DNA of 63,309 nucleotides, filler included, from Octopus bimaculoides (taxonomy: Eukaryota), in NCBI RefSeq assembly GCF_001194135.2. It is 6 parts of 6 records of this genome, joined end to end, with 100 filler letters (N's around TTAATTAATTAA, not from the genome) between each part and the next. Parts side by side here need not be neighbours in the genome. Positions count along the whole stretch, not along the records: positions 1 to 17,118 come from NC_068997.1; positions 17,219 to 23,409 come from NC_068986.1; positions 23,510 to 36,230 come from NC_068996.1; positions 36,331 to 45,305 come from NC_068984.1; positions 45,406 to 58,569 come from NC_068995.1; 1 more part is not named here. One strand, 5' to 3'. Shown here in pieces: positions 6,729 through 58,397 of this stretch. Under the pieces are notes generated by a model, which saw only the letters and a list, made by a program, of their open reading frames with translations, was not told where the DNA came from and searched no databases. The stretch's first letter is position 1. Each line of letters starts with the position of its first letter. A program made the position numbers and the translations under genes.

Positions 6729-6768
<40 letters not shown>

Positions 6769-6865
6769 ATAGAAAAGGTAAGACAACAAAAGAAAGAAAG
6801 AGACCTCGATATTATGTAAATAGAGGAATTTATCTGTAAATAATATGTGACAATTATTCGGTACC

Positions 6866-6932
6866 CATGATAAAACTCCGAGTTTCGGATGCTGGGGCGG
6901 AAACCCATGCTGCCATCTCTTCAGTTATCTGG
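6866..6932 (-). ncRNA. Type I hammerhead ribozyme motif (family 1)
   Basis: Minus strand reads GAUAA-CUGAAGA-GAUG..CAUC-C-GAA-ACUCGGAGU-U-UUAUC. Helix I GAUAA/UUAUC, intact cores, GUU site. One extra C at the base of helix II. Confidence 0.72.
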
Positions 6933-6959
6933 CCATCGATAACGTAGTCTAGGATGCAG

Positions 6960-7260
6960 TTTGCTTTTTGTTGGGATATGTTCCTTTTGAAAGAGATAGA
7001 GCGATTAAAGATGGTGGTAAGGATAGGTACTAGCACTGGTGTGTATTGTTTGATGGTTATGGAAGAGATGTTGTTAGGGCAGGTTGCCTTTTTGGGGGGC
7101 TTGAAGCAGTTGCAAGTGTTTTCAGAGCTGAGGTATTTGTATCTGTGTACACAGTGGTGAGCCTTGGCAGAGTGGAAAGGGAGAAGTTTTTTGGAAGAAG
7201 AATTAGTGAGTGGTGAGCAAATGTGGAGGATTTCTTTACAGGATGACTGCTTCAAGAACC
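6960..7260 (-). mobile_element. CR1/L2-type LINE RT N-terminal fragment
   Basis: KPPKKATCPNNISSITIKQYTPVLVPILTTIFNRSI resembles the KAxGPDxIxxxxLKxxxxxLxxxLxxLFNxSL motif. Confidence 0.6.
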
Positions 7261-7457
7261 ATTATGTTTGAGAAGTGGAGGAAAAGAGGATCTTGCTAGG
7301 GTAATAGTGATCCTCCTGGTAAAAGACTAAAAATGATAAGCTTCAGCAGTTTCTGATGCAAGTGAGCTTTTAGGCTGCGTACGGTATGTATGTGTTTGAC
7401 CGTTGACTGAACACTATTCAATTTTTTTTCTCCGTGTTTTTCTCCTTGTCTCCGTAT

Positions 7458-7494
7458 TCTTTCTGTTGAAGAGCGTAGCTCGAAACGTCAAAGA
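7458..7494 (+). ncRNA. Minimal type I hammerhead-like motif (family 2), variant core
   Basis: UCUUU-CUGUUGA-A-GAGC(GUA)GCUC-GAA-ACGU-C-AAAGA. Helix I 5 bp, helix II 4 bp, palindromic ACGU helix III, GUC site. A6 is replaced by U. Confidence 0.55.
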
Positions 7495-7584
7495 CTTTCC
7501 GTATTCCCGAGCGTCATACTAATATATACTTTTGTTATTTACACCACCTGTCCTCGTCTGTTGTTATTTTTTGTATATTCTCCC

Positions 7585-7617
<33 letters not shown>

Positions 7618-10600: not shown

Positions 10601-10859
10601 GGGAACCTATATACCGATATGCAAAACACCTCAATCTTCAGTCTTGACTTACTTGAAGATCCTGTGTACTCACAGGTGAAACACAGAACAGCAAGAGACT
10701 GACTCTACCAAAATTATGTGTATAAATACGTGTGTGTGTGTGTGTGTGTAGTTCTTAGTGAGGGATTATCAATTCTGGCAAGACTACTTTATAAGCTCTA
10801 TGCTAATTCATCAGGCTAACATTGTTTAAAAGAAAAATATGTAATGACCATTATTTATA

Positions 10860-11190
10860 CCCTCTCTCTCTCTCTCTCTCATTCTCTCTCACTCTTTCTC
10901 TCTCACTCTCTCTCTCTCTCTCCCTCACTATCTCCCTCTCTCTCTCTCTCCCTCTCTCTCTCCCTCTCTCACTCTCTCTCCCTTTCTCTCTCTCTCCCTC
11001 TCTCCCTCTCTCTCTCCCTCTCTCGCTCTCTCTCCCCCTCTCCCCCNNNNNNNNNNNNNNNNNNNNNNNNNNNNNNNNNNNNNNNNNNNNNNNNNNNNTC
11101 TCCCTCTCTCTCCCCCTCCCACTCACTCTCTCTCTCCCTCTCTCTCCCCCTCCCACTCACTCTCTCTCTCCCTCTCTCTCCCCCTCTCTC
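10860..11190. repeat. (CT)n-rich imperfect microsatellite spanning an N gap
   Basis: Directly visible. Confidence 0.95.
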
Positions 11191-14870: not shown

Positions 14871-16334
14871 TTATGGTTCACCTTTAATAAACTCTGCTCT
14901 GAAATATCTGAAATGAACAGTGAATTGCAGACAATGCCAGGAGTTAATTGTCTTAACCCAAGAGGAAAACATAGCACTGATGACCAAATGGTCTTCTAAT
15001 CTCTTTGAGGATTGTCCAAATTATCATCTACCCAGCCCTATCTACTTAGCCATTCATAATCTCCTTCATTTATTTACTTAACTGTTTTCTAATTGTTTTT
15101 TCTATTAAGTAGTCCTCTTTATTAAGACTGACTTCTTTCCATTATAGATTCCTCGTTAAACAAAGCTAATATCATTCTCTTTTCTTCTTCATTAATCTTC
15201 TTTAATCTCACCTCTTTCAGTTAATTACCCACTTCTAATTATCTCCTTCACTCTGTTCTCTTTCTTAATTAAGCTCTTTTTAATCAATTTGTCTATTTAG
15301 TTAAATGTCTTCATCATCTTTAATTTCTAGACTAAACACTTTCAATTTCATAGTGTCTTGGGGAGAGTATATGTCTGTCGTTTACTGTTGTTTGCTGTTG
15401 CCTTCTTCAGCTAAGCATGTCTTTAGTCCTCCTCCTCATCATCATCATCATCATCCTTAAAGACTTTTTCACTTCCCGAGCTTGATACTAATACATCTGT
15501 TTGTTGTCTACACCACCTGTCTTCGTCTTTTGTTTTTTTGTGAATTGTGTTCACGTCCCTGTAACATTAGCAGTTCAGCAAAAGAGACTGATAGAATAAG
15601 TACTAGGCTCGAAGAGAATGAGTCTTGCGGTCGAGTTCTTCGACTAAAATCCTCTAAGGTGGTGCTCTAGCATGGCCACAGTCAAAGGACTGAAACAAGT
15701 GAAAGAATAAAAAAATTTTTTTTAAATATGAATGAAAGTTTATGAATCACAATATAGAACATTTACTAACGGAGAGATTTAATACAGAAAGTTGTGTTGA
15801 ATTTAATATGTATATGTAAATATATATATATTATATATTATATGTGTATTATATACATACATATATATGTATATATATATATTTGTTGTACTTGGGGATG
15901 GTCATATTGCCAGTTTAGCCAATAAAAACACACGCACTGTATATTTGGTGTTAATTTGCTTTAGCTTTATATTACATTATATTACATTAATCCTATTTCA
16001 GCCAGAGTTCTTTCGTCACACTTCTGTGATCTCATCAGTGGTCCTTTGCTTTCTTCTTTCTTATGTGTGTCTCACCTTGCTAACTATCAGCCATTTTGTA
16101 TTCCTATTGTATGTGTCTACGCATGCGTATCCTTCAATGTATCTATGTTTTTGTAAGTGCATGTGTGTGTATGGGGAGTGCCTGTATTATCTATATCCTC
16201 TGTTAATACATGTTCGTTTGTTTTTGTTTTTATTTATTTATTTGTTCATGTGTTTATATCTACTTTTTTTTTGTATTTAATTTAATTTTGTTAACGTATG
16301 TAGTATTTAATTCCATTTGTTTATCTATGTATTG

Positions 16335-17494: not shown

Positions 17495-20329
17495 ATGGTT
17501 GATGTAGTGTGTCTCAAGTAGTAATGTTTAATTGGTATTGCTACATTCTACTTGCAAGCAATCCTCTCTGTAGTTAAACTAGGAAGCAACAAAGTGTTGC
17601 AGACAGCTTCTCTCTCATCAAGACTTCTGCCAGACCACCACAGCCAAAATCAGTAATTGGGTGCTTACAACTCCAGGCTAATTTGCCAAGTTGATTGCTT
17701 TTTGGCCTCATTTTCAGTGTTGAGCTTCTGTAATTTTTAGCAGTTTGGTCCATTAGGCTAAGATACAAGTTTCTTCAGTGCAGGGTGGTCATTCAGAAGC
17801 TGTAACTTTTACACTTTGAGGTTTTAGGTTGCAAACTGTATTCTTAGTTAGCATAGTCATTTTGCTTCAGTGTTAGAAAATATATATATTCTAATGGAAA
17901 AGACTCAATTACAAATGATATCTATTTAAATGTATAAAAACTTAAGAATCGCTTGCGTAAATATATTGTGTATGTGGCCATGTGTTAAGAAGTTTACTTC
18001 TCGCCCAGTGGTTCCAGGTTCAGTACTACAATGTGACATCTTGGGTAAATGTCTTCTACTAGAGCCCCAGGTCAACCAAAGTGTTGTGACAAGATTAGGT
18101 AGACAGAAACTGAAAGCAACTTGTAATGTGTATATATATATATATATATATAAAACCACAGATTTACAATATAAAATAGTGATGAATACATGGAATTCTT
18201 TACTAACCTAAACAATATTTTAGCCTAGTGTCCTAACAGCCTAGGGTCATAAAGTATTTAGCCCAGATTGATAATCCGTCACTAATAATTGTGTGTCTGT
18301 GTGCATGCATGTGTGTATGTTAGTGTCTACTCATCTTGATATCATGTGATAGATGTAAAATGATTGTCACTGTCATACAAGCAACGTCATTCATTCCAAT
18401 ATTCTGCAAGAACATGTCTAGCAACAAAGAAATATTAGCTTGCTTGGAAACAGATGAAGACTAGTAACAAGAAGGGCATCCAACCATAGAAAATCTGTCT
18501 CTTTCATTCACTATACTATGCTAGCCATGTAGGGATATCATTGGACCTATTCAATCTAGTCATCTCTCTGTCACCGTTCTCCTCTCACTAAGCCAAGCCT
18601 ACCATGTATCATGAGATAGTACTGAACCTACCAGTACTCAGGGCGCTACTTGCCTACCATCTGCACTCAGTACATCTTTTAAACTAGTGTATATATATGT
18701 GTGTTACATATATTATATCATACCTTGGTACTGTGTGGATTGAGATCCCTGTTGACATGCCCCTGATATTAAATAAAGTGTTAAAACTTACAATATGCAA
18801 ATTAGTAACCCCAGTTTTCTGTAGCTTCTGTAATTGTTGAGTATATAAAGAAATTGGCTGCTTGCTTCTCTAGGATTGGCCAAAGTGATGCAGACACTTT
18901 TGATGATAATCTCTGATTATGGCTGTTCAACATGTTTTTTCCCAATTTACTGAAAAATTGCTAAATAAGCCGTTTATGTATGTACTATATAGGTTATATA
19001 TATATTTATTTTAATATATATGTATATACACACACACTCTCTCTCTCTTTCACACACATACACACAATAGACTTCTGTATAGTTTTGCCAATCAAATTTC
19101 ACACACAGGGACCAGTCAGTGTGAGGTTATACAGAGGACACTTGCCCACTGCATTCTGCAGTGGGATGAATCGGAGATGACATGATTGGAAAGAAAATTT
19201 CTAAACTACACAGCCATACCAGTGCTTCAGCAAGCATACAAAATGAGCAACAAACTATTGATGACACTGATTCATAAATTATACCAGTGAGAATGTCTGA
19301 GAAATGAACTCCATGAGATGGAGTGACTGCTGCAGTATCACAGGCCATTCTCTATGGCAACGCCATTGTGGTCATTACGGCTGACCTCACCATTTGTTCT
19401 GGGGACTGTGGCCCATCACTTCCTCCCCCTCTATCTTCTGCTTTACCCCCTCATTGTTTCTTTCTTTTTTTTCTGTTTCTTTGTATAATTATAACATTTT
19501 AAATGTTCTAATTTAAAATGTGAGCTGTTGTATAAATGAATGTAGCAATAAAGCTTTTTTTCTGATTAATTATACCAGTTATATTCAGACTCAGTTTAGT
19601 TACATTAATCTGAATATTCAGTTTCATCTGGTTATGTTATAAGTAAAAAATCAATAAACTTAATATAAGTTTAAACCATCATTAGAATCATCCTCTAAGA
19701 TGAAAATCTAAATTTCACATCAGAATAGACATAAGATATTGAAAGAATGTATTTTTAATAGACATCATATACACATCTTATGGTTTGATGAAATACTTCA
19801 TTTTATGATTTGTGTATACCTTTGTAACATAAGAATTATAATAATGTTATCCCATTTTTCATTTATTTACCTACAATGTCAAATAAATCAACAGTATCAT
19901 TCTTCCCTCTGGAAAAGTTAGATAGAATATGAATATTCTGTAATAACACAGTGTTATTGCAGAATACGAATATTCTGTAATAACACTGTGTTATTGCACT
20001 AATGTTGTGTGGTTGTTATCACATACTATTGTAGCTTCTTTATTGTATGAACACCTTTAGATCAGGAGGAGCGAGAGAGAGAGCAAGTCATTGATAAGGT
20101 TGCAAATGACAGAGAAAGGTCTTTGGCAAAAAAAAAAAAAACTGGGTTTATTATTGGTATAATGACTAAGATACAAAATTTGTTTCAAAACATGAGTAGT
20201 TAACATCAAAAATTTTGCAAACCAAATACAAAAAAAAAAGTCACACACATATAATGTTATATATATATATATATACATTTTAATGGAATTGCTTTAGACA
20301 TTGATATAGTTAATTTTCTCTCATATGTT

Positions 20330-20778
20330 TAGTTGACATACAATTTTGAGAAAATGATTTACCACAGACATCACAGTTATATAGTTTCTCTCCTACATGA
20401 ATGCATTTGTAAGTGGTGAAGTTATCTTCCTGAGAGAATGATTTATCATGGATATCACAATGATTACGGATTCACTCTAATATGAATAAGTTTTTAAGTG
20501 ATTAAGGTATTTCCAAGAGAATGACTTACCAGACATCATAGTAGGAAGATTTCTCTCCTGCAAGAGTAATGTCTACAAGTAGCCAAGGTGCAACTTTCAG
20601 AGAATGATTTACATATCACAGTGACATGTGGTAAATCCTGTATGAAAGTGCTTGAGTGAAATTATTTCCAGCAGAATATTATTTACAAGAAATATCACAG
20701 TGATATGGTTTCTCTCCTGCTGAATGATTGTAGTTTTAGTTAAGTTACCATTTTAAAGAGTACAACTGACCATAAATA
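20330..20778 (-). pseudogene. About 5 decayed C2H2 finger units continuing past the ORF stop
   Basis: Finger-type DNA words (ggagagaaac.atat.actgtgat..ctgtggtaaatcatt) recur near 20690, 20610, 20530, 20450 and 20365, with stops and indels. The ORF-ending TGA fits a 2-nt deletion in cac tgt gat. Confidence 0.8.
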
Positions 20779-22104
20779 TCAGTGATATGGTTTTTCTCCT
20801 AAATGAATGAGCTTGTGAGTGGAGAGATGACCTTTCTGAGAGAATGATCTATCACAGACACCACAGTGATATGGCTTTTCTCCAGTATGAACACGTTTGT
20901 GAGTAGTTAAGTTACAATTAATGGAAAATGACATACCACAGATATCACAGGGATATGGTTTCTCTCCTGTGTGAATGCGTTTGTGTCTAGCTAAGTGGCT
21001 ACCATCAGAAAAAGACTTATCACATATATCACAATGATATGTTTTTTCTCTATCATGAATGCATTTCTGTTTCTCTAAGTCACTAGTGAAAGTAAAAGTT
21101 TTATCACATATATCACATGGCTTCTCTCCTGCATGAATTTGTTTGTGAATAACTAAGGTATTTCCATGAGAGAATGACTTACCACAGACATCACAATGAT
21201 ATGGTTTCTCTCCTGTGTGAATGCGTTTGTGAACATTTAAGACATTTCTATGAGAGAAGGACTTACCACAGGTGTTACAGTGATATGGTTTCTCACCTGT
21301 ATGAATTCGTTTGTGTGTAGTTACATGATAATTTTGAGAGAATGATTTACCACAGATGTCACAGCGATATGGCTTGTCACCTGTATGAATATGTTTATGA
21401 GTAGTTAAGTCACCACTTCGAGAAAAAGATTTACCACAGATATCACAATAATATGGTTTGTCTCCTGTATGAATAATTTTGTGAGAAGTGAGATTACCTT
21501 TCTGAGAGAATGATTTATCACAAATATCACAATGATATGGCTTCTCTCCAGTATGAATACGTATATGATTAGTTAAGTGACTTTCATCAGAAAATGATTT
21601 ACCACAAATATCACAATGATATGGTTTCTCTCCTGTATGAACACGTTTGTGTCTGGTTAAATGACTTCCATCCGAAAATGATCTACCACAGATATCACAA
21701 CGATATGGTTTCTCTCCTGTATGAATATATTTGTGTCTAGTTAAGTGGCCATTTAAAGAGAAAGATTTGCCACAGATATCACAATGATATGGTTTCTCTC
21801 CAGCATGTGGCTTCTCTCCGGTATGAATGCATTTGTGTCTAGCTATATGTCTGTCATCAGAAAATGATTTATTGCAAATATCACAACGATATGGTTTCTC
21901 ACCCATATGAATATATTTGTGTCTAATTAAGTGACTTACATTCAAAAATGGTTTACCACAGATATCACAATACAGGAGAAAAGCCTTTTCTCCTGTATGA
22001 ATGTGTCTGTGTCTAGTTAAGTGACTTCCAGTAGAAAATGATTTACCACAGATTTCACAGTGATATAGCATCTCTCCAGTAGTTAGGTTTCTTTTTAGAG
22101 ACAT
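20779..22104 (-). CDS. Tandem C2H2 zinc-finger protein, 441 aa, 15 fingers (finger 12 lacks the first His)
   Basis: Repeated CDICGKSFS..xxLxxHxxxH-TGEKPY units with 84-bp DNA periodicity and no internal stop. Coleoid C2H2 expansion is established knowledge. Functional status uncertain. Confidence 0.92.
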   Translation of the reverse strand: MSLKRNLTTGEMLYHCEICGKSFSTGSHLTRHRHIHTGEKAFLLYCDICGKPFLNVSHLIRHKYIHMGEKPYRCDICNKSFSDDRHIARHKCIHTGEKPHAGEKPYHCDICGKSFSLNGHLTRHKYIHTGEKPYRCDICGRSFSDGSHLTRHKRVHTGEKPYHCDICGKSFSDESHLTNHIRIHTGEKPYHCDICDKSFSQKGNLTSHKIIHTGDKPYYCDICGKSFSRSGDLTTHKHIHTGDKPYRCDICGKSFSQNYHVTTHKRIHTGEKPYHCNTCGKSFSHRNVLNVHKRIHTGEKPYHCDVCGKSFSHGNTLVIHKQIHAGEKPCDICDKTFTFTSDLEKQKCIHDREKTYHCDICDKSFSDGSHLARHKRIHTGEKPYPCDICGMSFSINCNLTTHKRVHTGEKPYHCGVCDRSFSQKGHLSTHKLIHLGEKPYH

Positions 22105-22500
22105 TTCAGAAATATCACAGTAACATAATGAATGTCCTATCTTATCAGATGAAAAAAATTCAACCTTTTAAATTTCTCACACAGTTAATTTTCCCAATGT
22201 TTTTCTTCTCTAACCATATCATATGGCTACATTCTTTTACTTGTGTTATAGTTTATTCCAAACAAATATTTCTTCAGCTATACTTCCATCACTATGATCT
22301 TCATCAGTATCTGAAAATGCCTCAAACACCTTTGTAAGTAAATATGTCCAAGTTTAATTGGAATGCAAAATCATCTTGTACAGATTCCCAGCAGTGAATT
22401 AGAGAAATTATGCTTTTAGTCTCATTTCAAAGGAAATATTTTATTGGTATCTTAACAGTTATTATAAACAGACTTTTTATCAGTTGCATGGAGTTTCTTC
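22105..22500 (-). pseudogene. Frame-disrupted N-terminal region of the zinc-finger gene
   Basis: VEFFSSDKIGHSLCYCDISE is in frame directly upstream of the Met at 22104. Further upstream, coding-like pieces (..EENIGKINCVRNLK; ATG GAA GAA..) are separated by frameshifts and stops. Confidence 0.55.
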
Positions 22501-23400: not shown

Positions 23401-23700
23401 GAGAGAGAGNNNNNNNNNNNNNNNNNNNNNNNNNNNNNNNNNNNNNNNNNNNNTTAATTAATTAANNNNNNNNNNNNNNNNNNNNNNNNNNNNNNNNNNN
23501 NNNNNNNNNCCTTGTTCCACCACCACGTTACTCTGGGTTGGGAGGGGACCTTACAATATATATATATATATATATTATTTGTATATTCTCCCATATATAT
23601 ATATATATGGGAAAATTTACAAAAAAACAACAACAGATGAGGACAGGTGGTGTAAACAACAAAAGGATGTATTAGTTTAACGCTCGGGAATAGAGAAAGT

Positions 23701-23735
23701 CTTTAACGTTTCAAGCTACGCTCTTCAACTGAAAG
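23701..23735 (-). ncRNA. More degenerate copy of the family 2 hammerhead motif
   Basis: CUUU-CAGUUGA-A-GAGC(GUA)GCUU-GAA-ACGU-U-AAAG, inside a module (about 23608-23810) homologous to 7430-7585. Confidence 0.45.
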
Positions 23736-24654
23736 GAACACAGAAAGAAACAAGGGAAAAAACAAGGAGAAAAATATATAAATGTAGTGGTCAGCGATCT
23801 ATCATGGCGAATATGTCTGTGTATGTGTGTGTTTGTGTGTCTGTGTTTGCTTCCCCAACATTGCTTGACAACCGATGCTGGTGTGTTTATATCCCTGTAA
23901 CTTAGCGGTTCGGCAAAAGAGACCAATTGAATAAGTACTAGGCTTACAAAGAATAAGTCCTGGGATCGATTTGCTTGACTAAAGGTGATGCTCCAGCATG
24001 GCGCAGTCAAGTGACTGAAACAAGTAAAGAGTATACAGTACAGTACTGTTTCTATTTCTTGGATTTTCACCTATCACAGGAGATTTTGGAATGCAACATT
24101 CACGATTGTTGAGGGATTACTGTACAGTGTGACCAGAAAGATGTGGCATCACTGGTAAGTTCCAGTAACAGTCTGTGGTAGATAATGTGTTAAAGAGGTG
24201 AACTATCAGAATTGTGAACACATTGCTTAGTAGCATTTCATCCATTTTTACATTCTTCATTCAAATTCTACCAAGGTTGACTTTGCTTTTCATCCTATCG
24301 TAGTTGATAAAATAAGTATCTGTTGAGCACAGAGGTTGATGTAATCGACTAGACAACCTCCTTACAAAATTCCAGGCCTTGTGCTTATAATGGTAAAGAT
24401 TATAGTTTGGTTATTAGAACATAAGTCAATGAATTACAATATGTTATTATGACATGAAATTAAACAACAAAATCAATACCTTATGAATTGCTTATTTAGA
24501 GGTTCATTTTAAATGATACATTTAAGGTTGTAATGTAAATTGCTTTAATCAGAAAAGAATTCTGTTTATATTATTTATATATATTATTTTTTATTTAATC
24601 ACTGATTATGATTATCTGTAAACGATATGTTATTCAAATTTATTTGGCTTAGGC

Positions 24655-25014
24655 CATTCATGGAGACTCTTCACATATAAGTTTTACAGAAAATTTCTTT
24701 GCTTTTACAGAAAATGTCTTTGCCTTTTATACAAAATGAAAAGAGGAAGTTGTTTTGTTTTGTTTAGAAAAGGAGAAAAAGAAATAAGAAAAGAAGAGAG
24801 GAGAGGAAGACAGAGAGGCCAGAAAAGGAGAAGAAGAAGGAGAAAGAAAGAAAGAAAGAATGTTTTTGGGGATGGTCTGTGATTAACAGGTAGCTGATGC
24901 TTAATGACATTTCAAGATGTCAATTTTGTATTTTTAAGAGAAAAACAAAATTGACATCTTGAAATGTCATTAAGCCTCAGCTACCTGTTAATCACACATC
25001 ATCCTCAAATACAT

Positions 25015-38603: not shown

Positions 38604-38853
38604 GCTTGGCGTTGAGGTGATGATACAAGACCATTCTCGCCGCTAACACTCTAGATGCGGAGCCAGATTCCAATGCCTTGTCTAAGTTCTTAACTAATTC
38701 ACCCTCTACCCTAGACCTATCTAAACTTAGCTGTTTGCTAAATCTAATGGACTCTATGCTCTCTGAACTAACTCCTTAATCCGGGCACGGAAAGCTTCAC
38801 AAGTCAAAATAGACTTGTTCATTTTCCAGTACCCGGGTCCCTGTCTATGACAC

Positions 38854-39555
38854 TTAATCTACATGCACCTCACACGTCACAAGCTTGTGATCAGTGTAAG
38901 GTACAATACAGAATTGTGGACAACTAACAGTATCCTTATCTAGGTCCTTAACGAATACTCTATCTAAGTACGATCTGCGTGAGCCATCGTTATTACTCCA
39001 AGTCCACTGTGGAATGCTTGGCTCACTCAGTCGGTAACGGTCTACTAGGTTATAGCTTTCTAGTAGCCCCTTGAGGCAAGGACTCTCCTTCCTATCAGTG
39101 GAGCCAACACTATCGACCCATGCATCGAGAATAATGTTGAAGCCCCCTACCATTATTACCGTTTTTGGCGTCACCAGAAAGTGCTCCAGATTCCGGTACA
39201 AACCTGACTGCCTACGATCCATAGGAGCATAGACAGCTACCAACCTGAAGGACTGTTTACTCACATGAGTCACATCCAGGACGACCAGCCTACCTTCTGG
39301 GTCCAGAAAGACAGTACTAACCTGTAAGTCCAAGTTCTTCCTGATAAGGACTGCCACGCCTGCACCTCCTCCTCGGCTAGGAGAAATAAATTTCTCGTAA
39401 CCATTCAGAAGAGGCAAGAACGCTTGAGGTCCCTTCATCTTGGACTCGGTTACAATAGCAACATCTATTCTATGTGTTGTGAGGTCGTTCAGGAAACAAG
39501 CCTGTTTCCATCTTGACCCAATTCCACGTACATTTAAACAGCCTAACTTAATCAT
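38854..39555 (-). pseudogene. LINE ORF2 apurinic-like endonuclease domain
   Basis: MIKLGCLNVRG, VTESK, VAVYAP, MVGGFN (GDFN variant), TWSN..SYLDRVF and TDHKLV motifs, followed by frameshifted GPGYWKMN. Confidence 0.92.
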
Positions 39556-40177
39556 CGAGAAAAGAAAAGTATTTACTTNNNNNNNNNNNNNNNNNNNNNN
39601 NNNNNNNNNNNNNNNNNNNNNNNNNNNNNNNNNNNNNNNNNNNNNNNNNNNNNNNNNNNNNNNNNNNNNNNNNNNNNNNNNNNNNNNNNNNNNNNNNNNN
39701 NNNNNNNNNNNNNNNNNNNNNNNNNNNNNNNNNNNNNNNNNNNNNNNNNNNNNNNNNNNNNNNNNNNNNNNNNNNNNNNNNNNNNNNNNNNNNNNNNNNN
39801 NNNNNNNNNNNNNNNNNNNNNNNNNNNNNNNNNNNNNNNNNNNNNNNNNNNNNNNNNNNNNNNNNNNNNNNNNNNNNNNNNNNNNNNNNNNNNNNNNNNN
39901 NNNTAATAACCAGCTTTCTAGATATCACCTCTTGGGTGACATCTTTAATTAAATGTTCTTTCACTACTTCTTGGAGGAGGTTTTCTCTCCATTCCTCCTC
40001 GCCGATTCTTGCGTATCTCACTTCACTGTCCGTAACTTTGAAAGTTTTAATTCGGTGGTGCGCCTTAATTAGGCAAACCACCTTCTCATTTTTGGCATTG
40101 AAAGCCACTATTTTGTCTGTGTTTTTAAGTCCTTTTAATGTTGGTGGGTGGGGGATGGCAAAATGTTGGCCTATCAA
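39548..40177 (-). pseudogene. Probable C-terminal part of ORF1 (spans an N gap); stop overlaps the ORF2 start
   Basis: Coding-like sequence between the ORF1 5' part and the endonuclease. Ends GAT GAT TAA at 39548. Confidence 0.55.
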
Positions 40178-40363
40178 TGTAGTGCCAGCAGGGTAGGATT
40201 GGAGAATTTTTTTATGTTGTTCGTCAGTATTATTAATTTTTATTTTGTTTGGGGTGGGGAGTCCGGGGTATTAGATTTTTTCCTTTTATGCGTGACAGTT
40301 GTGAATTCCATTTCATTTTCATTTGTTTGTTTTTTTTCCTCTTTTTCATTTTTATTTTGTTTT

Positions 40364-41275
40364 TCATTCTTTTTTTTTTCCTCCTTTTGATTTTCGATTT
40401 GTTTTTTTTTTGTCCGGGTTTTCTTTGGTTGTTGCTGTGTTGTCTGGCTCGTTGTTGTCTGTATTTATCACAGCCTTTTGGGGAGGGGCATTAGCCATTT
40501 TTTTTTTTGTGCAGACGGAGCGAATATGGCCCTTCTGACTGCACTTAAAGCATCTTGGCCTACGTCCCTCCACTGATACACGAATAGCATGCCCCTCCCC
40601 CACGAAGACCCTATCTGGTAAATTTTCTAGGGTCAAATTGTCTGCCTGAATGACCATTTCAAGGCTCTGACCCTTCCAATTTGTCGCCTCTTTCTTTCTC
40701 ATGCTCAATATCGTTAGTTTTCCCTCTACATCATAGATTATAGCAGTTGCTACCCACATAACATTGAATCCCTTGGGTATCTCCTCCAAAATAATTTTTG
40801 CCGTTCTGCGGCCAAAGTATGTAGGCAGCAGCATTATATGCTTGTTCTTTAGAGTCTGAGTTGACACTTCCTTCGCGACGCTCTCCGACTCGAAGTGGGC
40901 TTCTATTGTAGCGTTTCTCACTCCTCGGCTAACGTAGCGAATCTTGTTCCATATTGGTGACAAGTAACGTTCTACAATTTCGTTTTTTATGTCCATTATT
41001 TTTTTTTCTTTTATGTTATAAATTTTATAAACTACGGTTTTTTTTCGTATGGCATCTATAGTTTCAGGGGGCGATACCAGTTTTGTCACTTCACCAGTTT
41101 TCTCTATTAAGTTTCTGAACTGGAAGAGTTTCTCCATTGCTACTTCCAGTTCAATTATGTTACCGTCAACGGCGTCTGAAAAACTTTGTTTCGCCTGGGT
41201 GTCCTTTGGTATAACAACTTTTTTTCCTTCTCCCATCTCGGGAAAATCAGATTTTGAAGATAATTCAAATTCCAT
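40364..41275 (-). pseudogene. LINE ORF1 (5' part) with CCHC zinc knuckle
   Basis: GRRPRCFKCSQKGHIRSVC matches CX2CX4HX4C, preceded by an RRM-like region. Frame is lost in A-rich homopolymers. Confidence 0.85.
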
Positions 41276-42379
41276 AATGAATACGAAAACTTGTCACAAA
41301 TGACAAGTAAAATAACTTTTCAAAATAACCTAAAAAGGTTAACAAAAAAACAGAAATTTTCTGCCTTGGAGGGCGAAAATAACTGTAAAATAGTTCGCAT
41401 CAGAAAGTAGAAATTTTCTGCCCTGTAGGGCAAAAATAATTGTATAACAGTTCACCAAAAAACAGTCCAAATAAATTATTCAACAAAATTATTAACAAAT
41501 AAGTAACTAAAGAATGAACTCACATTAACAAGGGTAGCAACAATAAAGATGTAAACGCCGAAATTCAATGCAAAAGATGTCCCAATGCAAATACGTATAT
41601 ACTTTTTCCAGTGAAAATATTCACTGATCTCGAAAAAGTGAAAACAAGCAATGTTAAATCTCTGAATGAGGTATAAACAGTAACTGCACGACAACGTGAA
41701 GTATATTTGCCACTTAAATGCGGCTAAACCCTAATGTTACTGTTGCTTTTAGCCCCAGGAGAACATCTCCTCCAGCTGGCTATTGACACACATCTGTGTC
41801 CTGTCTGTATTTGCAAAGGGAATATATATATTTCTTCTTTCTTTTTCTTTTCTTCCTTTTTCTTACCATCCCTAGAAACCATCTCAAAACAATGGTGTAA
41901 GTAGTAAACAAGTTTTTTACCTTTATTTATTTATTTATTTATCTATTTATTTTTTTGACAATCCTTAAAAAGACCATTTCAATACAATGAAAGTGGTGAA
42001 TAGGAAAATGAATAGCCCTTCTCTCTCTCTTTTACCCTACCCATCTTTCTATCTGTCATGCTATCAATCTATCTGTCTTATCTAACTATCTATGTCTGTC
42101 TGTCTGTCTGTCTATCTGCTTATCCATCTTCCATTGTCTCCAAAACCTCACCCCCAAAAAACAAAACAAAACAAAAACAATGTTCTCTTATAAACAAAAT
42201 GCCAAATAAAACATGTTTTATATAAATAAGCAAGATTTGTGTATTTTCACAGAACTATATTTGACAAGTTCAAAAGATGAACAAATGCGCTAATATCGAA
42301 ATGAAAGTATAAAATAAATGAAAGAAGTTTTTTCCCAAATTCTGACGATTTTTTTTCAATATATACATACATATATATA

Positions 42380-42423: not shown

Positions 42424-43265
42424 CATATAAATATTCTATAATTATAAACATAATTATAATTAGGGGTCAGCTAATTGCTTCACCACATACCGAATTTAGA
42501 AATAGGAGCTAAAAATTGCTTTTCTACTACCATAAGAATCTCCCAGACAGTAACACTTTTTACGTAAGCAAAAAGAAAAATAATGAATCCAAACGACTCT
42601 GATTAGCCACATATGCGTTTCGAGATTGAAGTACTTTACTTACTTATTTCTCATCATCAATGTAGCATTTCAAATAAATTTAAAAGTGCTAGGGTTAAAT
42701 GTGTACACGATTAAGTGTCATTGCGCAACAGATATCCAACCAACAATTCCAAAATTTACACAGCGGAGGCAGACACGTGGCTGTGTGGAGGCACAGATGT
42801 GGCTGTATGGAGGTACAGATGTAGCTGCGTGGAGACACAGAGTGGCTGTGTGGAGGCACAGACATGGAAGTGTGGTAAGTAGCTTGCTTACCAGCTACAT
42901 GGTTCAGGTTTCAGTCCCACTGCATGGCACCTTGGCCAAGTGTCTTCTACTATAGCCTTGGGCCGACCAAAGTCTTGTGAATGGATTCGGTAGATAGAAA
43001 CTGGAAGACGCCTGTTGTGTATATATCTACCTATCTATATATATATGTATGTATATATATATACATTTGTATGCCCAACATCACTTGAGAACCGATGTTG
43101 GTGTGTTTATGTACCTGGAACTTAGCGGTCTGGCAAAAGAGACTGATAGAATAAGTACCAGGCTTACAAAGAATAAGTCCTGGGGTCGATTTGCTCCACC
43201 AAATGCAGTGCTCCAGCATGGCCGCAGTCAAATGACTGAAACAACCAAAGAAAAGAACAAAAGAA

Positions 43266-43294
<29 letters not shown>

Positions 43295-43296
<2 letters not shown>

Positions 43297-44917
43297 CTGT
43301 AAATAATGTGACAATTATTTGGTAGCCACGATAAAACTCCAAATTTCGGATGTTGGGGCGGAAACCCACGCCGCCATCTCCCTTAAAGGTAAGGGAGTAA
43401 AAATGTCCATAGTATTCACGTAGGCGCACCAGTCCATACATACACATGCGTGCCGCACACCCACGTACATGCGCCTATATGTATATACTCATCTACCCTC
43501 ACTTGAAACACACACATGCTCACCCACACATTCGCCAAAAAATATATATATATACCTGCAGATACGCTCACACACGCACACATGCAACACACTTGCACAC
43601 ATATACACACGTGCAAAAGAGTTTAATACACATGTCTATATATGCACATGCACAAGAAAAAACAGGGCTAAAGGCAAAATACAGAAAAAAGTGTAAAAAA
43701 GCCATAAGGGTAAAACATGTCTATATGTGCACATTCTCGCATGCATACAAGGCCAGGTTCAATAATCACACCTTGAGCTTCAGGCACTGGGATAAAAGGA
43801 AAACGACCAAATTATCCAGTCCTTAAAAGATAAAGGTGTCAGTTACAACATCCATTGGAAGATCTACACCAACGGCAGCAGAAAGTGCGGTCTTTGTGAT
43901 ATGGAAAGATGGCTCATCTGGAAAAGCAGCTTAGACCCTGCCACACGTCTAAATTCAAGAACTGAACTTTTCGGATCATATCCACATGTGGCTAAATATT
44001 TGTTACGATTTTGGTCCCCCTGAGATTACAGATAGGACTTGCTCTCTATATTGTGTCCACGTACAAGCTTTTTAGCTCTCTATACTTTTTACTTATATTT
44101 CTTATATATTTTTTATATTATTTTTACATATTTATAGAGATATTGTTTTATAAGTTTATCACTCATATATTTTTTACACATATTTTTTCTGTATTCTACC
44201 TTCCACCCTGCTTTTTTCCATTGCGTATATAGACATGTACATCGAACCTTTTGTGCGCACTTGTGAATGTGTGCATGTACGTGCATAAATAGATGTGTGT
44301 GTGTGTGTGTGTGTGTGTGCGTGCATGCGAGAATGTGCACATAAAGACGTGTTTTACCCTTATGGTTTCTTTACACTTTTTTCTGTATTTTGCCTTTAGC
44401 CCTGTTTTTTCTTGTGCATGTGCGTATATAGATGTGTGTATGAACCTTTTTTGCGCGTGTGTATGTGTGTAAGCGTGTTGCGCGCACATGTGTGTGAGCG
44501 TATATATATATATATTTTTGGCGAATGTGTGGGTGAGCATGTGTGTGTTTCAAGTTAGGGTAGATGAGTATATACATATAGGCGCATGTACGTGGATGTG
44601 CAGCATGCATGTGTATGTATGGACTGGTGCGCTTACGCGAAAACTATGGACACTTTTACTCCCTCCTCTCACTTAGCGGTTATTCTAATAGCACTTTTGT
44701 CTTAATAACGGTCAATCACACAGTAATTTCCCTTTGTTTAACAGTCATTTTCATAGCATTTTTCGATGACCAGACAACTGAAGAGATGGTGGCGTGGGTT
44801 TCCGCCCCAACATCATGGCTGCCGAATAATTGTCGCATATTATTGACAGATAAATTACTCTATTTACATAATATCAAGGTCTCTTTCTTTCTTTTGTTGT
44901 CTTACCTTTTCTATCAA
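43295..44917 (+). mobile_element. 5'-truncated Penelope-like element with inverted pseudo-LTR arms
   Basis: GIY-YIG C-terminal remnant in the middle. 43392-43748 is the reverse complement of about 44318-44664. Hammerhead-module copies lie at both outer ends, each abutting (TA)n. Confidence 0.75.
43746..44023 (+). pseudogene. Penelope-type GIY-YIG endonuclease C-terminal remnant
   Basis: YKARFNNHTLSFRH..TKLS / LKDKGVSYNIHWKIYTNGSRKCGLC..LNSRTELF..H resembles the PLE motif RYxNHxxSF..LSK..LK..WxI..CxLC..LNxRxE..H. One frameshift. Confidence 0.75.
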
Positions 44918-44949
44918 TATATATATATACATACATACATACATATAAG

Positions 44950-45305
44950 AAAGAGGTCTGGAGATGCCACTACGATAGATTGTTTAATAAAGAGAATGAA
45001 TGGGAGAAAGAGAGCCTGCCGTATGTCGACCCAACAGAGGGACCAATTATCCGAGTTGACAGAACCAGGGTAGATAAAGCAATTAAGAGTATGAAGACAG
45101 GGAAAGCCCCAGGCCCATCAGGAATCACTGCAGAGATGCTCAAAATATCTAGCAGTGTTGGCTACAGCCTAGTCACCCGTATTACGAACCAGGTGATACA
45201 CGAAGGAGTCATACCCAATGACTGGTGTAGCAGCACCATAGTCAACTGCTACAAAGGTAAAGGTGACGCTTTAGATATAAATAATTACAGAGGCATCAAG
45301 CTGTT
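44950..45305 (+). mobile_element. RTE-clade LINE RT fragment, cut by an N gap
   Basis: VDKAIKSMKTGKAPGPSGITAEMLK..IPNDWCSSTIVNCYKGKGDALDINNYRGIKL. Confidence 0.88.
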
Positions 45306-45878: not shown

Positions 45879-46553
45879 TCAGGTCATCCCATAAGGTCTG
45901 TCCGATTTTACCTTTTTTGAAAACTGAATGAAATTTAATAGTATTCTAGAATGTCTTATCGAATTAAAAATTCTTTTATGCATTTGTGGACATTTAAACT
46001 AATTAAATTTAACTTACAGAATAATATAATTAAAATGTTTTGATTAAAACCTTTTCTAACATGGAAGTATCCAAAGAGCATTTATCAATGCTCAAGTCTA
46101 CTGTCAGCAATTAGATAGTTTGAACCAAGCTTTGAAGAAAAAAAAACCCGCTTTAGTGAATCGAAATGGAGTGATGTTTCATCAGGACATTGAGCGACCC
46201 CACACTGCAAAGATCACATCACGGAAGATCGAAGAACTCGGTTTGGAAAAACTTCCTCATCGCCCTTATTCTCCCGACCTTGCTCATTCAGACTACCATT
46301 TGTTTCGTAGCTTACAGAATCATTTGGGGGACATAACTTTCGCAAGCCAGGAGGAGGTCGAAACTGACATTTCAGAGTTCTTCGCTTTCAAACCAAAAGA
46401 GTTTGACATTGATGGGATTAAAAAGCTTGTAAATAGATGGAAGTCATAGATAATCAGGAAAAGTACATTGATTATTAAATTTCATTTCAATATAACATTT
46501 GATCACTTGTTTTCTTTATTCAAAATTCGGACAGAACTGATGGGATGGCCTGA
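45879..46553 (+). mobile_element. Internally deleted DD34D mariner with both TIRs and TA target-site duplication
   Basis: TA|TCAGGTCATCCCATAAGGTCTGTCCGATTTT ... AAAATTCGGACAGAACTGATGGGATGGCCTGA|TA. ORF 46120-46449 has HQD-x34-D and the YSPDLAHSDYHLF motif. Confidence 0.92.
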
Positions 46554-49599: not shown

Positions 49600-50930
49600 T
49601 TCAGGGAAATGGTAATGTGAAAATTTAGAAACTCTAGCATCCTTTGAATAATCACACAATTAGAGCCGTTCTAATCGACACATTTAACGAGGAGGAGGCA
49701 TTACGGACCTGGTACTCAGAGTACAACTGGAAGATCTTGCGAGAAAACTTACTAAGTGTCATAGACGAAATCTGTGGTTGGTGCAAAGTCCCAACCAGAC
49801 CTAGATTGATGTGGTGGAGGAACAGTGTAGTATCCAATGCCATTAAAGTGAATAAACATGCTTAAGAGGACTGGAAGATCGGTAGTAGCAGAGAACTATA
49901 TCAGGAAGCTAGAAGGAAAGCTCGAAGACAGGCGTACTTACCCATAAGATAAGCAGAAAGGAAGAAGTTTGGAAATATTATGTGGCATATGGACCAGAGG
50001 ATTGACAGTATGTCAGAGACAACCATGCTTTAATAAGATAGACATGCGTTCTCATAGATGATGACTCACTGTTAGTGGTCCTGCAAAGAAGACGGCTTGG
50101 AAGTGCCGCTATGAATGGTTGATAAAAAGAATTACAGAGTGCATGGCAGAAGGAGAACATGCCTAACGTGGATCCAACGGAGGTTCCACGTTATCTGAAT
50201 CAACATTTGCTTAGCAGAAAAAGCAATTAAGGGTGTGAAGACAAGGCAACTCCCCATTCCATCAGGAATGACCGCTGTGATGCATGAAATATCTGGCAGT
50301 GTGAGACACGGCCTAGTCAACTGTATAATTAATCACATCAAAACTAAGCTGTCGTACCCAATGAGTGGTGTACCAGCGATAGAGTTAACTACTGAAAAAA
50401 TAATGGTGACCGCTTAGGCAGAAATAATTACACAGGTAATAGATAGTTTCTGTTACTTTGACGACAAAGTTAGCAGTGAAGGAGATAGTTCTAAAAGTGT
50501 AGTTGCTAGAATAAGAACACTATAGGCATAGATCAGAGAGCTGTTACTTTTGTTAGTAAATAAGTGCCTCTCTCTAGGAGTGAGAAGCAAATTGTATGAT
50601 GCTTGTGTACGAAGAGCTATGCTATATGGCAGTGAGACATGCGATGGCTTTAAAGAGATGAAGCCAGCATGCTCTGCCGGATGGGTAATGTCATGTGCAT
50701 GTACGATTAGTTGTAGTGTGCGAGAGAGACGACTCTGCTAGTATGGTCATGTGATTCGTATGAATGAGGACAGCTGCTTCAAGATGTGCCGATCTTGTAT
50801 TATTGAGGGAACGTGTAAAGGGGTAGATTAAGGATATGTTGGACTATGTGGTGCAAAGAAGATGAAAAGGAACCGAGACTTCTGGCGTTTTATTGTGGTT
50901 GAGAAGACACTTCTTTCTAAGTAAATTCGG
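49600..50930 (+). mobile_element. Heavily decayed RTE-clade LINE (linker, RT and C-terminus)
   Basis: Pieces WKILRENLLSVIDEICGW..WW, SFCYFDDKVSSEG and RSKLYDACVRRAMLYGSET, with many stops. Confidence 0.75.
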
Positions 50931-54600: not shown

Positions 54601-54959
54601 CAGTACACTTCCCGGAAATATTTATTCAAAGCATTCCGCATTTCATCGACATAATGTTACTAGATGTCTGTAGAAATGATATTATAAATTTAAGACCAGC
54701 AGAACATATTTACTAGTTAGAAATCGCATAGAAATCACCCTGCAAATTAATCAGTAATCATAGAATAAACTAAACATTTATATTTTAATGAACCATTGAA
54801 GCAAATTGTTTGGAATGCTCAAACAATGAATGTTCAAGATAGTGATAATAACAAAAAGGAATATTGGTACAAAAAAGAATATTTTAGTAGTTCCGATAAA
54901 GTTAATCATGCAACACCAGCAACATAGGAATTTTAAATATAGAAGTGTCCCTCGAAAAT

Positions 54960-56720
54960 AAAATTAGTTGGAGTAATGTTGTAAAACTTCTCAGTATTTA
55001 TTTGAACATGGCGTATAGATTCAAGAATCCATACCGATATCATTTGCTAAACTGTTTAATAGTTATAAGCAGCCCTTCTAGCTGTTGGTCATCTCTTGCA
55101 AAAAGCTTTCGAACATCCGTGTAAAAACAAAAGGAAAAAAAAACAGTTTATTATCTTGTTTAGAATTTTGTATCCATATCCAGTGTGAATGAATTCATTT
55201 CAGAGTGGGATCAGTTCCATGCAAAAGAATAAAGGAGAGAGAGAGAGTCACCTTGAAAGATGCCTCGTTCAATGTTGATGTTGTTGCATAGGATCATCCC
55301 ATTACTATGGTTTAGAAAGTGACGTGTATTCTACTTGGTCAGCTAATTTGTAAGAGATGGAGATGAGAAGAGAGATTTTGTATATTTCAATAGCCTTTGT
55401 TATCCATCTATGTAGGATAATATCAAATGTTTCCCTGTGCCGAATCTATGTCACACTCAGGTTCTTGCTTTTGCCGCGACGATTTTCTAAAATCAATCTA
55501 TTTATGAGCAATTTCGTTTATAACTTTTTCAAGTTTGTGGAATGATAGAGCTCGCTTCAAGGAAAGCGTACGTTATTTCATTCATTATGGATGTGAGAAT
55601 CTCTTTTGTACTGTTGAGACATGTTCTTGGTCGGAAATTCTTCGGGTTTCTTCAAGTGTGTCATTGGTTTTTGGTAGTAGTTAGATAATTTCTTCAGTCA
55701 GCCAAGCACGTATTTGTTCTGGGTTTTGAAGGATATCCGTCAGAGAGAGTGATACTTTCTTATGCTTCTGTCAAACAATTTAATCAGGAGTTACGGAAAA
55801 GGTCCAGTTCTAGGGGTTTCTATGTTTGAGATTTTCTTAACTATTCTATTCCTAATGCTTCTAACCTCTGTGCTTCACCTTTATCCATTCGCTGCTTTTC
55901 ACATTCTATCCAGTCAACCACAGTGCTATACTCTTTTTCGTGGTTCCATATATTTTTCTGACTCTTCCACTTCTCAGTCTGAAGTGGTACTTTTACCTCT
56001 ATCATAGTTTTGCCAATTTCCCTATAAAATTTCTTTGTATCTGTTTTGAATATTTTGTTTTAACTCTAAAACTTGTTTCTTTTATCAGAACTTCTAAGCA
56101 GCTGTTTCAACAGTTCCTACATAGTACGGACATTTATAAGATCTTTGATTTTATATTTTTTGTTTGATTTTTCTGGCTTTTCTTGTTTTAATATTTACTT
56201 CCCTTGGAAGTTCATCGAGAATTGATACATCCGCCCAAAGTGATTCAAAATCTGTTTGTATTTTTATTTTCAAACGTGGAGATCTTTTGACATATCTCGA
56301 CATTTGATTCGTAATCTTGATACCTAGTTTTGAAGTTACTACAACGGCAGTAGAATAGATAAGCTTATCTCAATCCGTTATATCATATCCCTTATTTCTT
56401 AAGATCTGTCTTAGAGCAACGTTATAGATAATGATTTTGTTGTTATTCTTCGTGCTGTATCTAAACGTTGGTAGCATTTCTTTATTAACCAAGCCAGTAA
56501 ACTCAATCTTCCTCAGTTCTCTTGTAATGTCTTCTGAAATCTTTTCCCAATTATTCATGTGAAATTCTGTGCCATTTCTATTTTAGTGTTCTTCCTTTTC
56601 TTCCCTATTTTTTTTTTTCAGTTTTCATATTTACTGCTCTTACAATAAGTTCTGCATTTCTGTTACCAATTTCATCTGCATGGTTGCTGTTTCCATTTGC
56701 CTACTATGATTTAAGAACTG
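54960..56720 (-). mobile_element. Decayed R4/Dong-like LINE, RT region
   Basis: Frame-broken PKNFRPxTCL, LLINRLILENRRGKSKNLSV, remnants of GIFQGDSLSPL and FYTDVRKL..NDIGM (YMDD region). Confidence 0.7.
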
Positions 56721-56965
56721 ATTTAAGTGTCGGTTAGTCTTTTGTTTTGACGACACCTCAACGTAAATTATTTATTTGCATCTCTTTTACTCTTTTACTG
56801 GAGCACCGCCTTTAGTCGAGCAAATCGACCCTAGGACTTATTCTTTGTAAGCCTAGTACTTATTCTATCGGTCTCTTTAGCCGAACCGCTAAGTTACGGG
56901 GACGTAAACACACCAGCATCGGTTGTCAAGCGATGTTGGGGGTACACACAGGCACACAAATATAT

Positions 56966-57018
<53 letters not shown>

Positions 57019-57189
57019 TACGACGGACATCTTTCAGTTTCCGTCTACCAAATCCACTCACAAGGCTTTGGTCGGCCGGAGGCTATAGTAGAAGACAATT
57101 GCCCAAGGTACCACGGAGTGGGAATGAACCCGGAACCATGTGGTTGGTAAGCAAGCTACTTACCACACAGCCACTCCTTGCCTACTAAA

Positions 57190-57600
57190 TTTCTCCATGA
57201 AATATGTTCGTACAATGAAGTTATTATTTGGGTTTAGTTGAACCATGTCCTCTCTAGTCCATTGTATGCATTTTGCTTTAAGTGGTGCTTTTTGGTGGCA
57301 TCACTACAGGCCTATCCTTATGATTATTCTTGCTCTTGTTACATGTTAGAACGTGTGCTTTTGTTTTTGACCAACAGATATTTCGAATCCTGTCAGGTTC
57401 TCGACTAAATAATGCAGCACCTGTTGTTGCAGGCGATGACCGTTCAGCAAGCTTTTTGCTTTGCCATTAAAATATTGAGTCTCACATTAGGAGACGGGTC
57501 GGTTTGTTTTGAGTTATCTTTTTGACAGAATACTACTTCTTTGAATGGGCATGCTTCACATATCGCAATCGCATGAAGCTTATAAATCGAAACTCGCTAC
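57190..57600 (-). mobile_element. Probable 5' ORF part of the same R4/Dong-like element, separated by a SINE insertion
   Basis: Coding-like decayed sequence with KCIQWTRED, collinear with the RT piece. Confidence 0.45.
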
Positions 57601-57754
57601 TATCTTTTATTTCGCATCCGACTTGAAAATTTTATTTCGTCTGTATGAGTTACTTACTTTAGCAAACCCTCTGTAGATTTCGTTTTAGTATCTCTTGACA
57701 TTTTATTGTTTTATTCGTGCCAGTTGTGTAGTATTATTGATTCACAATTGTAGT

Positions 57755-58075
57755 AGTGGTGGTGGTAGGAGTTGGGGTGGTGGCAGTCTTCATCGTCACC
57801 GTCGCCGTCGTCGTCGCCGTCGTCGTCGCCGTCGTCGTCGCCGTCGTCGGCGCCGTCGTCGTCGCCGTCGTCGTCGCCGTCGTCGTCGTCGCCGTCGCCG
57901 TCGTCATCGTCGTCGTCGTAGTTGTAGTAGTAGTAGTAGTAGTAGTGGCAGCAGCAGCAGTAGTAGTAGTCGTAAGCGGAGGAGGAGGAACAGCGGCGGC
58001 GGCGGCAGCAGCAGCAGCATCAGTAGTAGTAGTAAAAGGAGGGGGAGGAGGAGTAGCAGTAGTAGTAGCGTCTCA
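57755..58075. repeat. Compound trinucleotide array: (GTCGTCGCC)n, (GTA)n, (GCA)n, (GGA)n
   Basis: Directly visible. The most CpG-dense tract of the window. Confidence 0.9.
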
Positions 58076-58319
58076 GCTGTGATGAAGAATATTAAGTTCG
58101 AAATTGAAAAGAATTGTTTTCGAGCAGGATACAGTAACATACATATGTATGTATACATATATATATATATATTATTTAAAATGTATTATTCATTTAAAAT
58201 GCAGAGATGCCTATAATAGGACATCTAACCCGCTAGAAAGAGCAGCAAAAGACTACATACCACAAAATTAGGGATAATTTCGAAAGGGAATGAAAAATAA
58301 ATACATTTACCAATCTATA

Positions 58320-58397
58320 TTCTATACCATGGTTTCAAGTCAATTTTAGTAAGATAAAAATTATATATCTTACAAGGTCGGACTATCATCAGCAGAA
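58320..58397 (-). ncRNA. Type I hammerhead ribozyme motif (family 4)
   Basis: UUCUG-CUGAUGA-U-AGUC..GUAAGAUA/UAUCUUAC..GACU-U-GAA-ACCAUGGU-A-UAGAA. Intact cores, palindromic helix III, GUA site. The 10.1/11.1 pair is U.U in this copy. Confidence 0.68.

Follow-up and report, generated by a model that had tools for sequence, protein, structure and literature searches.

Penelope-like elements (PLEs) of the Hydra clade are the closest described relatives of the hammerhead motifs that we discuss here, which lie in a stretch of 63,309 nucleotides (the window) made of six parts of the Octopus bimaculoides assembly GCF_001194135.2 joined end to end. The clade is defined by a CxCx5C linker, RWK and DKT (Craig et al. 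2021, PMC8557442). According to the text and tables of that paper, a hammerhead is established near the 3′ end of these elements, (TA)n is the target in 26 of the 27 listed families, helix III is a near-palindrome of 8-10 nt, and a family from Octopus bimaculoides itself, Hydra-1_Obim, is listed. Arithmetic on the same tables puts the end of helix I 25-148 nt before the 3′ end in 23 of the 25 families with a sense hammerhead row, the remaining rows being one at 350 nt and one at the 5′ end; the role of the hammerheads is stated there as unclear. Cervera and De la Pena (2014, PMC4209133) describe genomes with numerous hammerhead families unrelated to one another, most of them single motifs deriving from truncated PLEs, and characterize the minimal hammerheads of metazoan PLEs as dimer-dependent and of low activity. 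Retrozymes are described as canonical hammerheads in tandem arrays that are expressed in the form of circular RNA (Cervera and De la Pena 2020, PMC7229834). Among cephalopods, the supplement of PMC13282606 gives 190 PLE families and 6.83% of the genome for Octopus vulgaris, and 235 hammerhead_1 loci were counted in the giant squid (PMC6962438).

The hammerhead motifs of the window are most likely the 3′ ends of several PLE families, short modules left by 5′-truncated insertion into TA microsatellites, and the first of these families, family 1, likely belongs to the Hydra clade. A preliminary description of the window had proposed a candidate cephalopod retrozyme or PLE-ribozyme system. Its PLE side is borne out by the tie of family 1 to a predicted Hydra-clade endonuclease remnant and by the succession of hammerhead and (TA)n, but since that layout is the published signature of Hydra PLEs, the system is not a new one.

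Hammerhead motifs and their (TA)n tracts

Motifs were sought on both strands with a type I descriptor that called for a helix I of at least 5 bp, CUGANGA with at most one mismatch, a helix II of at least 4 bp, GAAA, A15.1-U16.1 together with a 15.2-16.2 pair, and an NUH triplet. It was written after the preliminary description was known, and the shuffle figures given below are thus a control rather than a blind test. The window contains exactly four matches, the four motifs that had been read from the sequence beforehand:

6869..6929, minus strand: type I hammerhead 1, with a 5-bp helix I, CUGAAGA, helix II, GAAA, helix III ACUCGGAGU and GUU
7458..7494, plus strand: minimal type I hammerhead 2, with UCUUU, CUGUUGA (A6U), a bulged A, a 4-bp helix II, GAAA, ACGU and GUC
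33863..33991, plus strand: type I hammerhead 3, with a perfect core, a 7-bp helix II at the base of a 100-nt hairpin, ACGGCUGU as helix III and GUA
58320..58397, minus strand: type I hammerhead 4, with CUGAUGA, a 4-bp helix II that holds an inner hairpin, ACCAUGGU as helix III and GUA

Motifs 1, 3 and 4 have the perfect CUGANGA core and the type I order of core, NUH and helices I and II; the motif at 7458 has CUGUUGA. Three perfect-core and four one-mismatch matches in the window compare with 0.015 and 0.075, respectively, as the averages over 200 local dinucleotide shuffles, none of which exceeded one match, and the reversed sequence gave no match, so the preliminary description's own check, a look for equally good motifs in shuffled sequence, favours the motifs. 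A relaxed scan returned 23 candidates, with a TA tract downstream only in the five known motifs (the four above and a relative of motif 2 at 23701-23735). No hammerhead was among the 142 Rfam matches in the window at E≤5, which are microsatellite-driven microRNA (miRNA) models; Rfam models miss the ribozymes of these families. A degenerate string of hammerhead type (CUGAAGG ... GAAACGUC) lies at 3090-3140 on the minus strand; it lacks a helix I that pairs and was not counted.

The helix III segments are palindromic or nearly so, as had been described, ACGU and ACCAUGGU perfectly and ACUCGGAGU and ACGGCUGU near-perfectly, and the motifs are indeed unrelated to one another: the best pairwise BLAST match between the four modules has an E of 0.09, which is no significant similarity. 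That they stand for four families holds for motifs 1 and 2, whereas motifs 3 and 4 are single copies in the window. The active hammerhead is the minimum-energy monomer fold for none of the four motifs, the forced fold being 2.4-6.6 kcal/mol less stable; self-pairing of the longer helix III segments is calculated at -9.7 to -11.2 kcal/mol and that of ACGU at only -1.7. These modelled energies are as would be expected for hammerheads of the dimer type. The hairpin of motif 3 has a z-score of -2.3, with 3 of 200 shuffles equally stable. The four motifs are real sequence features, and their self-cleavage is a prediction only.

Between helix I and the TA tract that follows lie 102, 94, 90, 92, 221 and 147 nt in the six copies measured. 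The preliminary description placed each motif about 95-225 nt upstream of (TA)n; families 1 and 2 and motif 4 (five of the six copies) lie at 90-147 nt, and for motif 3, at 221 nt, the link is at chance level. The window holds 73 TA tracts of at least 4 units, and a random position has a probability of 0.13 of lying within 225 nt of a tract of at least 5 units, and of 0.05 and 0.074 of lying within 100 and 150 nt, respectively, of one of at least 6 units. Stronger evidence for the TA link than distance is the shared terminus: two independent copies each of families 1 and 2 end on the same base before TA. Exceptions are one copy of family 2 (copy c below) that has no terminal TA tract and the left arm of family 1 (43297-43745, below), which stops about 60 nt short; for motif 4, insertion at (TA)n is one case. 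Around motifs 3 and 4 we can outline two possible modules:

33676..34212, plus strand: possible module round hammerhead 3, between 35-nt and 10-nt TA tracts, with presumed boundaries; single copy in the window
58173..58569, minus strand: possible module round hammerhead 4, its 3′ end at (TA)n 58172 and its 5′ side cut by the gap at 58570; single copy in the window

The long TA tract of motif 3 is the upstream one, 33641-33675, and its downstream tract is common to another interspersed repeat starting at 34209. Two abundant short interspersed repeat families occur in the window (for example at 23811-24033, 43015-43251, 56798-57178 and 34209-34417), and as the ends of these, too, abut TA or TG tracts, neighbouring repeats have TA tracts in common. 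A long mixed trinucleotide repeat run occupies 57794-58072, downstream of motif 4 and 67 nt past its TA tract. Two further ideas about motif 3 were discarded: an 18-base pattern from it matched 7 loci in metagenome contigs, all GC-rich (0.50-0.72) and with no hammerhead context seen, which we regard as chance, and a solo long terminal repeat, suggested by a module start of TGTAAC, was dropped when no target-site duplication or primer site was seen.

Family 1 and a Hydra-type endonuclease remnant

Self-BLAST revealed two copies of family 1 that were absent from the preliminary description, at 44760-44947 and 43291-43380. They are the outer ends of an inverted repeat (43297-43745 on the minus strand and 44322-44916 on the plus strand) that encloses coding sequence:

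6767..6942, minus strand: family 1, 5′-truncated PLE 3′ end, with homology to 44760-44947 and 43291-43380 and a 3′ junction that matches the one of the copy ending at 44916; (TA)n at 6766
43297..43745, minus strand: inverted 5′-truncated family 1 arm, without the CUGAAGA half of the hammerhead; (TA)n at 43296
43748..44023, plus strand: broken C-terminal Hydra-type PLE endonuclease, in two reading frames, with a stop at 44021-44023
44024..44916, plus strand: likely 3′ untranslated region of the endonuclease-bearing element, in part duplicated internally and containing a (TG)n tract; (TA)n at 44917
44775..44822, plus strand: family 1 hammerhead remnant, in which a 19-nt deletion takes GAAA, helix III and the cleavage site

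The left arm is 89% identical over 354 nt to the reverse strand of 44322-44664, and 97% over 32 nt in helix II, and self-BLAST and the sequence place both arms pointing outward into TA tracts. By this arrangement, 43297-44916 is an inverted truncated copy joined to a truncated sense copy, as has been described for PLEs. The endonuclease remnant starts close to where the two arms meet head-to-head, and its strand is that of the right-arm hammerhead; from this one locus we infer that 44024-44916 is continuous with the remnant. Hammerhead 1, in the copy at 6767-6942, has its predicted cut between 6874 and 6873.

A HMMER scan of 1.84 billion representatives gave 8 homologues of the endonuclease remnant at E≤1e-3, and when these relatives were placed on the window by tblastn, they reached E 1e-17 at the remnant and matched no other place at E<0.05; a word-index protein search with the 64-residue endonuclease piece gave no match. 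The full-length relatives carry YRDD, the CxCx5C linker, and RWK or DKT (CxCx5C in P0001, P0002, P0004, P0011 and P0012, RWK in P0011, DKT in P0010), and by eye the last residues of the remnant resemble the C-termini of Hydra-1_Amil and Hydra-1_Obim as read from supplement DNA. No accompanying reverse transcriptase (RT) remnant was found in the window, and RWK, DKT and CxCx5C are seen only in the database relatives. Family 1 is physically tied to a predicted Hydra-clade endonuclease remnant, and it is the only one of the families with a Hydra-type C-terminal endonuclease on the hammerhead strand.

The peptide at 6854-7261 on the minus strand has a CxC motif but no PLE match in tblastn, and we rejected it as part of family 1; it is presumably a fragment of a long interspersed element (LINE). 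Directly after the TA tract of family 1, an RT-like LINE fragment occupies 44944-45300 on the plus strand, with a second copy at 50136-50436.

Family 2 and the evidence of public reads

Family 2 is a family with a minimal hammerhead, represented in the window by three copies and a short terminus, one of which, copy c, is absent from the preliminary description and was found by self-BLAST:

7396..7584, plus strand: family 2 copy a; (TA)n at 7585; very high read depth, with 5′ loose ends at 7396
23609..23805, minus strand: family 2 copy b, 84% identical over 202 nt to copy a; (TA)n at 23608
23573..23592, plus strand: short inverted family 2 terminus, tail-to-tail with copy b across the TA tract (7565-7600 and 23573-23608 are 97% identical)
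15459..15546, plus strand: family 2 copy c, which starts at most 2 nt from the predicted cleavage site; no 3′ TA tract

The pairing of 7458 with 23701 in the preliminary description is correct in that the two are homologous, but the motif of copy b (23701-23735 on the minus strand, with core CAGUUGA and a G-U at the base of helix II) is more decayed and falls outside the descriptor, and neither core is canonical, so that the invariant core is not kept in this family. Hammerhead 2 has its predicted cut after 7489. Since other hammerheads are less active when position 6 is changed (A6C in the experiments cited from PMC3088659 and PMC7151607), family 2 is predicted, by analogy, to be weak or inactive; one literature search returned no report of A6U in a hammerhead. 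The family may belong to another PLE clade, and no partner open reading frame (ORF) was found for it.

Public reads from three RNA runs (unstranded, ordinary cDNA, sampling about 6 in 100 reads) and one DNA run were aligned to 6770-7580 at 80% likeness; three metatranscriptome runs of low share were left aside. Summed contig depth, which is not a copy number, was 56 in the unique spacer, 0.17-1.6 million in family 1 and 2.2-3.4 million in the core of family 2, and it is evident that both families are high-copy. Beyond 6936 in the 5′ direction, reads go on into sequence that resembles 44700-44765 by eye, and 613, 782 and 524 reads continue 5′ of 7396; the window copies of both families are therefore 5′-truncated. 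In family 1, the majority bases of run X2 at 6864 (99%), 6908 (89%) and 6911 (90%) restore pairs of helices I and II that are lost in the window copy, when paired by hand, though the variant table gives them without linkage and the copies are too few to count pairs. In family 2, no T>A at 7466 that would restore A6 was among the 40 best supported of 86 variants, and the cleavage triplet varies between GUC and GUU, the latter making up 33% of DNA depth.

In the three runs, 3700, 3616 and 2831 RNA reads aligned to the families; not one RNA read of any run fell on the unique DNA that separates motifs 1 and 2. A few RNA reads join the end of family 2 back to 7396 (for example 7580 to 7396 in 3, 3 and 2 reads, and one form through a TA tract); none of the joints listed for these ordinary cDNA libraries lies at a predicted cut site. 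A uniform RNA variant of family 2 at 7477, with 178-363 reads per run and 98-99% agreement, joins upstream sequence straight to helix II, helix I and the first core strand being deleted, and probably comes from one expressed locus. A fall of DNA depth in family 1 was considered as a sign of cleavage; since it lies between 6879 and 6892 rather than at the cut, 6873/6874, and is absent from the RNA reads, it is no evidence of cleavage.

Competing explanations and relation to known elements

For the PLE families that we propose, the full-length element would be about 2-3 kb long, with one ORF for an RT plus GIY-YIG endonuclease at the C-terminus and a type I hammerhead near the 3′ end. Following the established model, the endonuclease would nick (TA)n and the RT would copy the RNA from its 3′ end, usually stopping early, such that most copies would keep just the hammerhead and tail; sometimes a second truncated copy would be attached head-to-head, a layout like that at 43297-44916. 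In the published model for such ribozymes, tandem precursor transcripts would be cleaved as dimers through the palindromic helix III. The single copies in the window are predicted to be largely inactive: half the ribozyme is missing from two copies of family 1, and family 2 has its core change. Motifs 3 and 4 probably also belong to the Hydra clade, by analogy of helix III type and position.

Several observations weigh against this reading. By tblastn, there is no PLE protein remnant near families 2, 3 or 4; Pfam gives no match to the remnant beside family 1, and for its relatives the GIY-YIG match stays below the cut-off. The tie between endonuclease and family 1 is seen at a single locus, where weak homology extends about 40 nt into the inverted arm (43707-43745) and the head-to-head junction is therefore not exact, and the 3′ region so assigned to family 1 measures about 900 nt versus about 200 nt in Hydra-1_Obim. 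Motif 3 has as its downstream TA tract one of 10 nt, at a distance that chance would give with a probability of 0.13. No two-sided compensatory change was found in the stems among reads and window copies, and in the three unstranded RNA runs the ends of molecules do not accumulate at the predicted cuts of motifs 1 and 2 or elsewhere in 6770-7580, an observation that weighs little in either direction.

Some of these same points would suit another explanation, by which family 2, family 3 and perhaps family 4 consist of short non-autonomous units of 250-550 nt, either retrozyme monomers or resembling short interspersed elements, that borrow PLE enzymes and perhaps go through circular RNA. No ORF lies near these families, TA flanks the motif 3 module on both sides, the hammerhead-bearing copies a and b of family 2 begin within about 10 nt of each other, copy c begins at the predicted cut, a few RNA reads join the 3′ end of family 2 back to its start, and non-LTR (long terminal repeat) retrozymes are reported as derived from PLE termini (10.64898/2026.07.22.740005). 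Yet there are no tandem units with hammerheads in the window, and the go-back joints fit genomic tandem copies equally well, whereas circles made by the ribozyme would join at 7489/7490, which is not among the listed joints; reads run on 5′ of 7396, ends do not pile up, the family 2 core is non-canonical, and copy c is one case among six copies. We consider this explanation rather unlikely. The retrozyme half of the preliminary proposal likewise found little to sustain it, given the lack of tandem arrays in the window and of circular RNA evidence, and given that both testable families extend 5′ of their modules; family 1, moreover, is linked to a coding region, which a retrozyme is not. Doubtful, too, is the proposal that family 2 is a very abundant, short non-autonomous parasite of PLEs with a fixed A6U core, alongside a motif 3 with a structured helix II of 100 nt.

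If the ribozymes had been retained to serve the host, for instance by cleaving pre-mRNA within introns, this would account for the family reads in RNA and for the ABHD11-like exon that lies on the strand of motif 3, 1.9 kb downstream of it, but the window copies are decayed relative to the majority bases of their families, in two of them half the ribozyme is gone, no RNA reads fall on the unique DNA next to motifs 1 and 2, and single motifs of like kind did not cleave as monomers in the assays reported in PMC4209133, which together make such a function very improbable. The proposed scattering of the motifs through host introns found no support either, with just one ABHD11-like exon and one zinc-finger exon located and the spacer silent in RNA. 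Least credible of all are chance matches in AT-rich, microsatellite-rich DNA: the Rfam result, the monomer folds that do not favour the active shape and the frequency of TA tracts would be in keeping with chance, but it is largely refuted by the shuffles, and there are repeated copies and a likeness to published Hydra hammerheads.

Other features of the window are a long tandem C2H2 zinc-finger coding exon at 20320-22167 on the minus strand (ORF of 462 aa, 15 zf-C2H2 stretches, with 84-nt repeats beyond) and, at 35842-35973 on the plus strand, one exon of an ABHD11-like hydrolase, no other exon of which was found in the window. A broken non-LTR retrotransposon with ORF1-like, endonuclease-like and RT-like pieces, which we take to be L1/Tx1-like, spans 36283-41293 on the minus strand, and transposase-like remnants at 32580-33299 and 46060-46449, both on the plus strand, are presumably Tc1/mariner-like. 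A near-perfect long inverted repeat at 24867-25006, with a hairpin of about 65 bp, is the top Rfam shape match and looks like a miniature inverted-repeat transposable element or a miRNA.

Taken as ordinary PLE remnants, the families in the window add a few uncatalogued or unannotated families where PLEs are already abundant. With family 2, high in copy number and changed in its core, next to families whose cores are intact in one genome, a direct comparison that bears on the role of PLE hammerheads would be possible: cleavage of family 2 as a dimer would make it a new natural core variant, and failure to cleave would turn it into a natural test of whether retrotransposition of PLEs requires the hammerhead at all. 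The families seem distinct, by sequence, from the octopus Hydra consensus with which they were compared, Hydra-1_Obim, and may already stand in RepBase, Dfam or the O. vulgaris library; in the literature we found no paper on them beyond Craig et al. 2021 and the giant squid count.

Compared with non-LTR retrozymes, as presented in PMC7229834 and in a preprint by Li et al. (2026), the window families have in common the type I hammerhead, short non-coding units of similar size and a PLE connection, but the copies are single or inverted, and the RNA runs show no clear circles. Family 2 has the minimal layout described in PMC4209133, with a 5-bp helix I, an unpaired base between 9 and 10.1, G10.1-C11.1, and ACGU without loop 3; it differs in having U at position 6 (or, in another register, U3 with G8), whereas a core variant given there is U3-A8. 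With respect to the Hydra elements tabulated in PMC8557442, helix II is longer in motifs 1, 3 and 4, the 3′ region of family 1 appears longer, and by eye neither the hammerhead nor the tail of Hydra-1_Obim matches any of the four motifs. The helix III of motif 1, ACUC-G-GAGU, is identical to those of Hydra-2_aMil and Penelope-16_HM, and that of motif 4 is one central base off that of Hydra-1_oBim; exact 12-nt searches found only the helix III of motif 1, in Hydra-2_Amil. In overall plan, the window families and the Hydra PLEs of that paper have in common the C-terminal endonuclease type, a 3′ type I hammerhead with a near-palindromic helix III, (TA)n as target, 5′ truncation and the inverted truncated copy.

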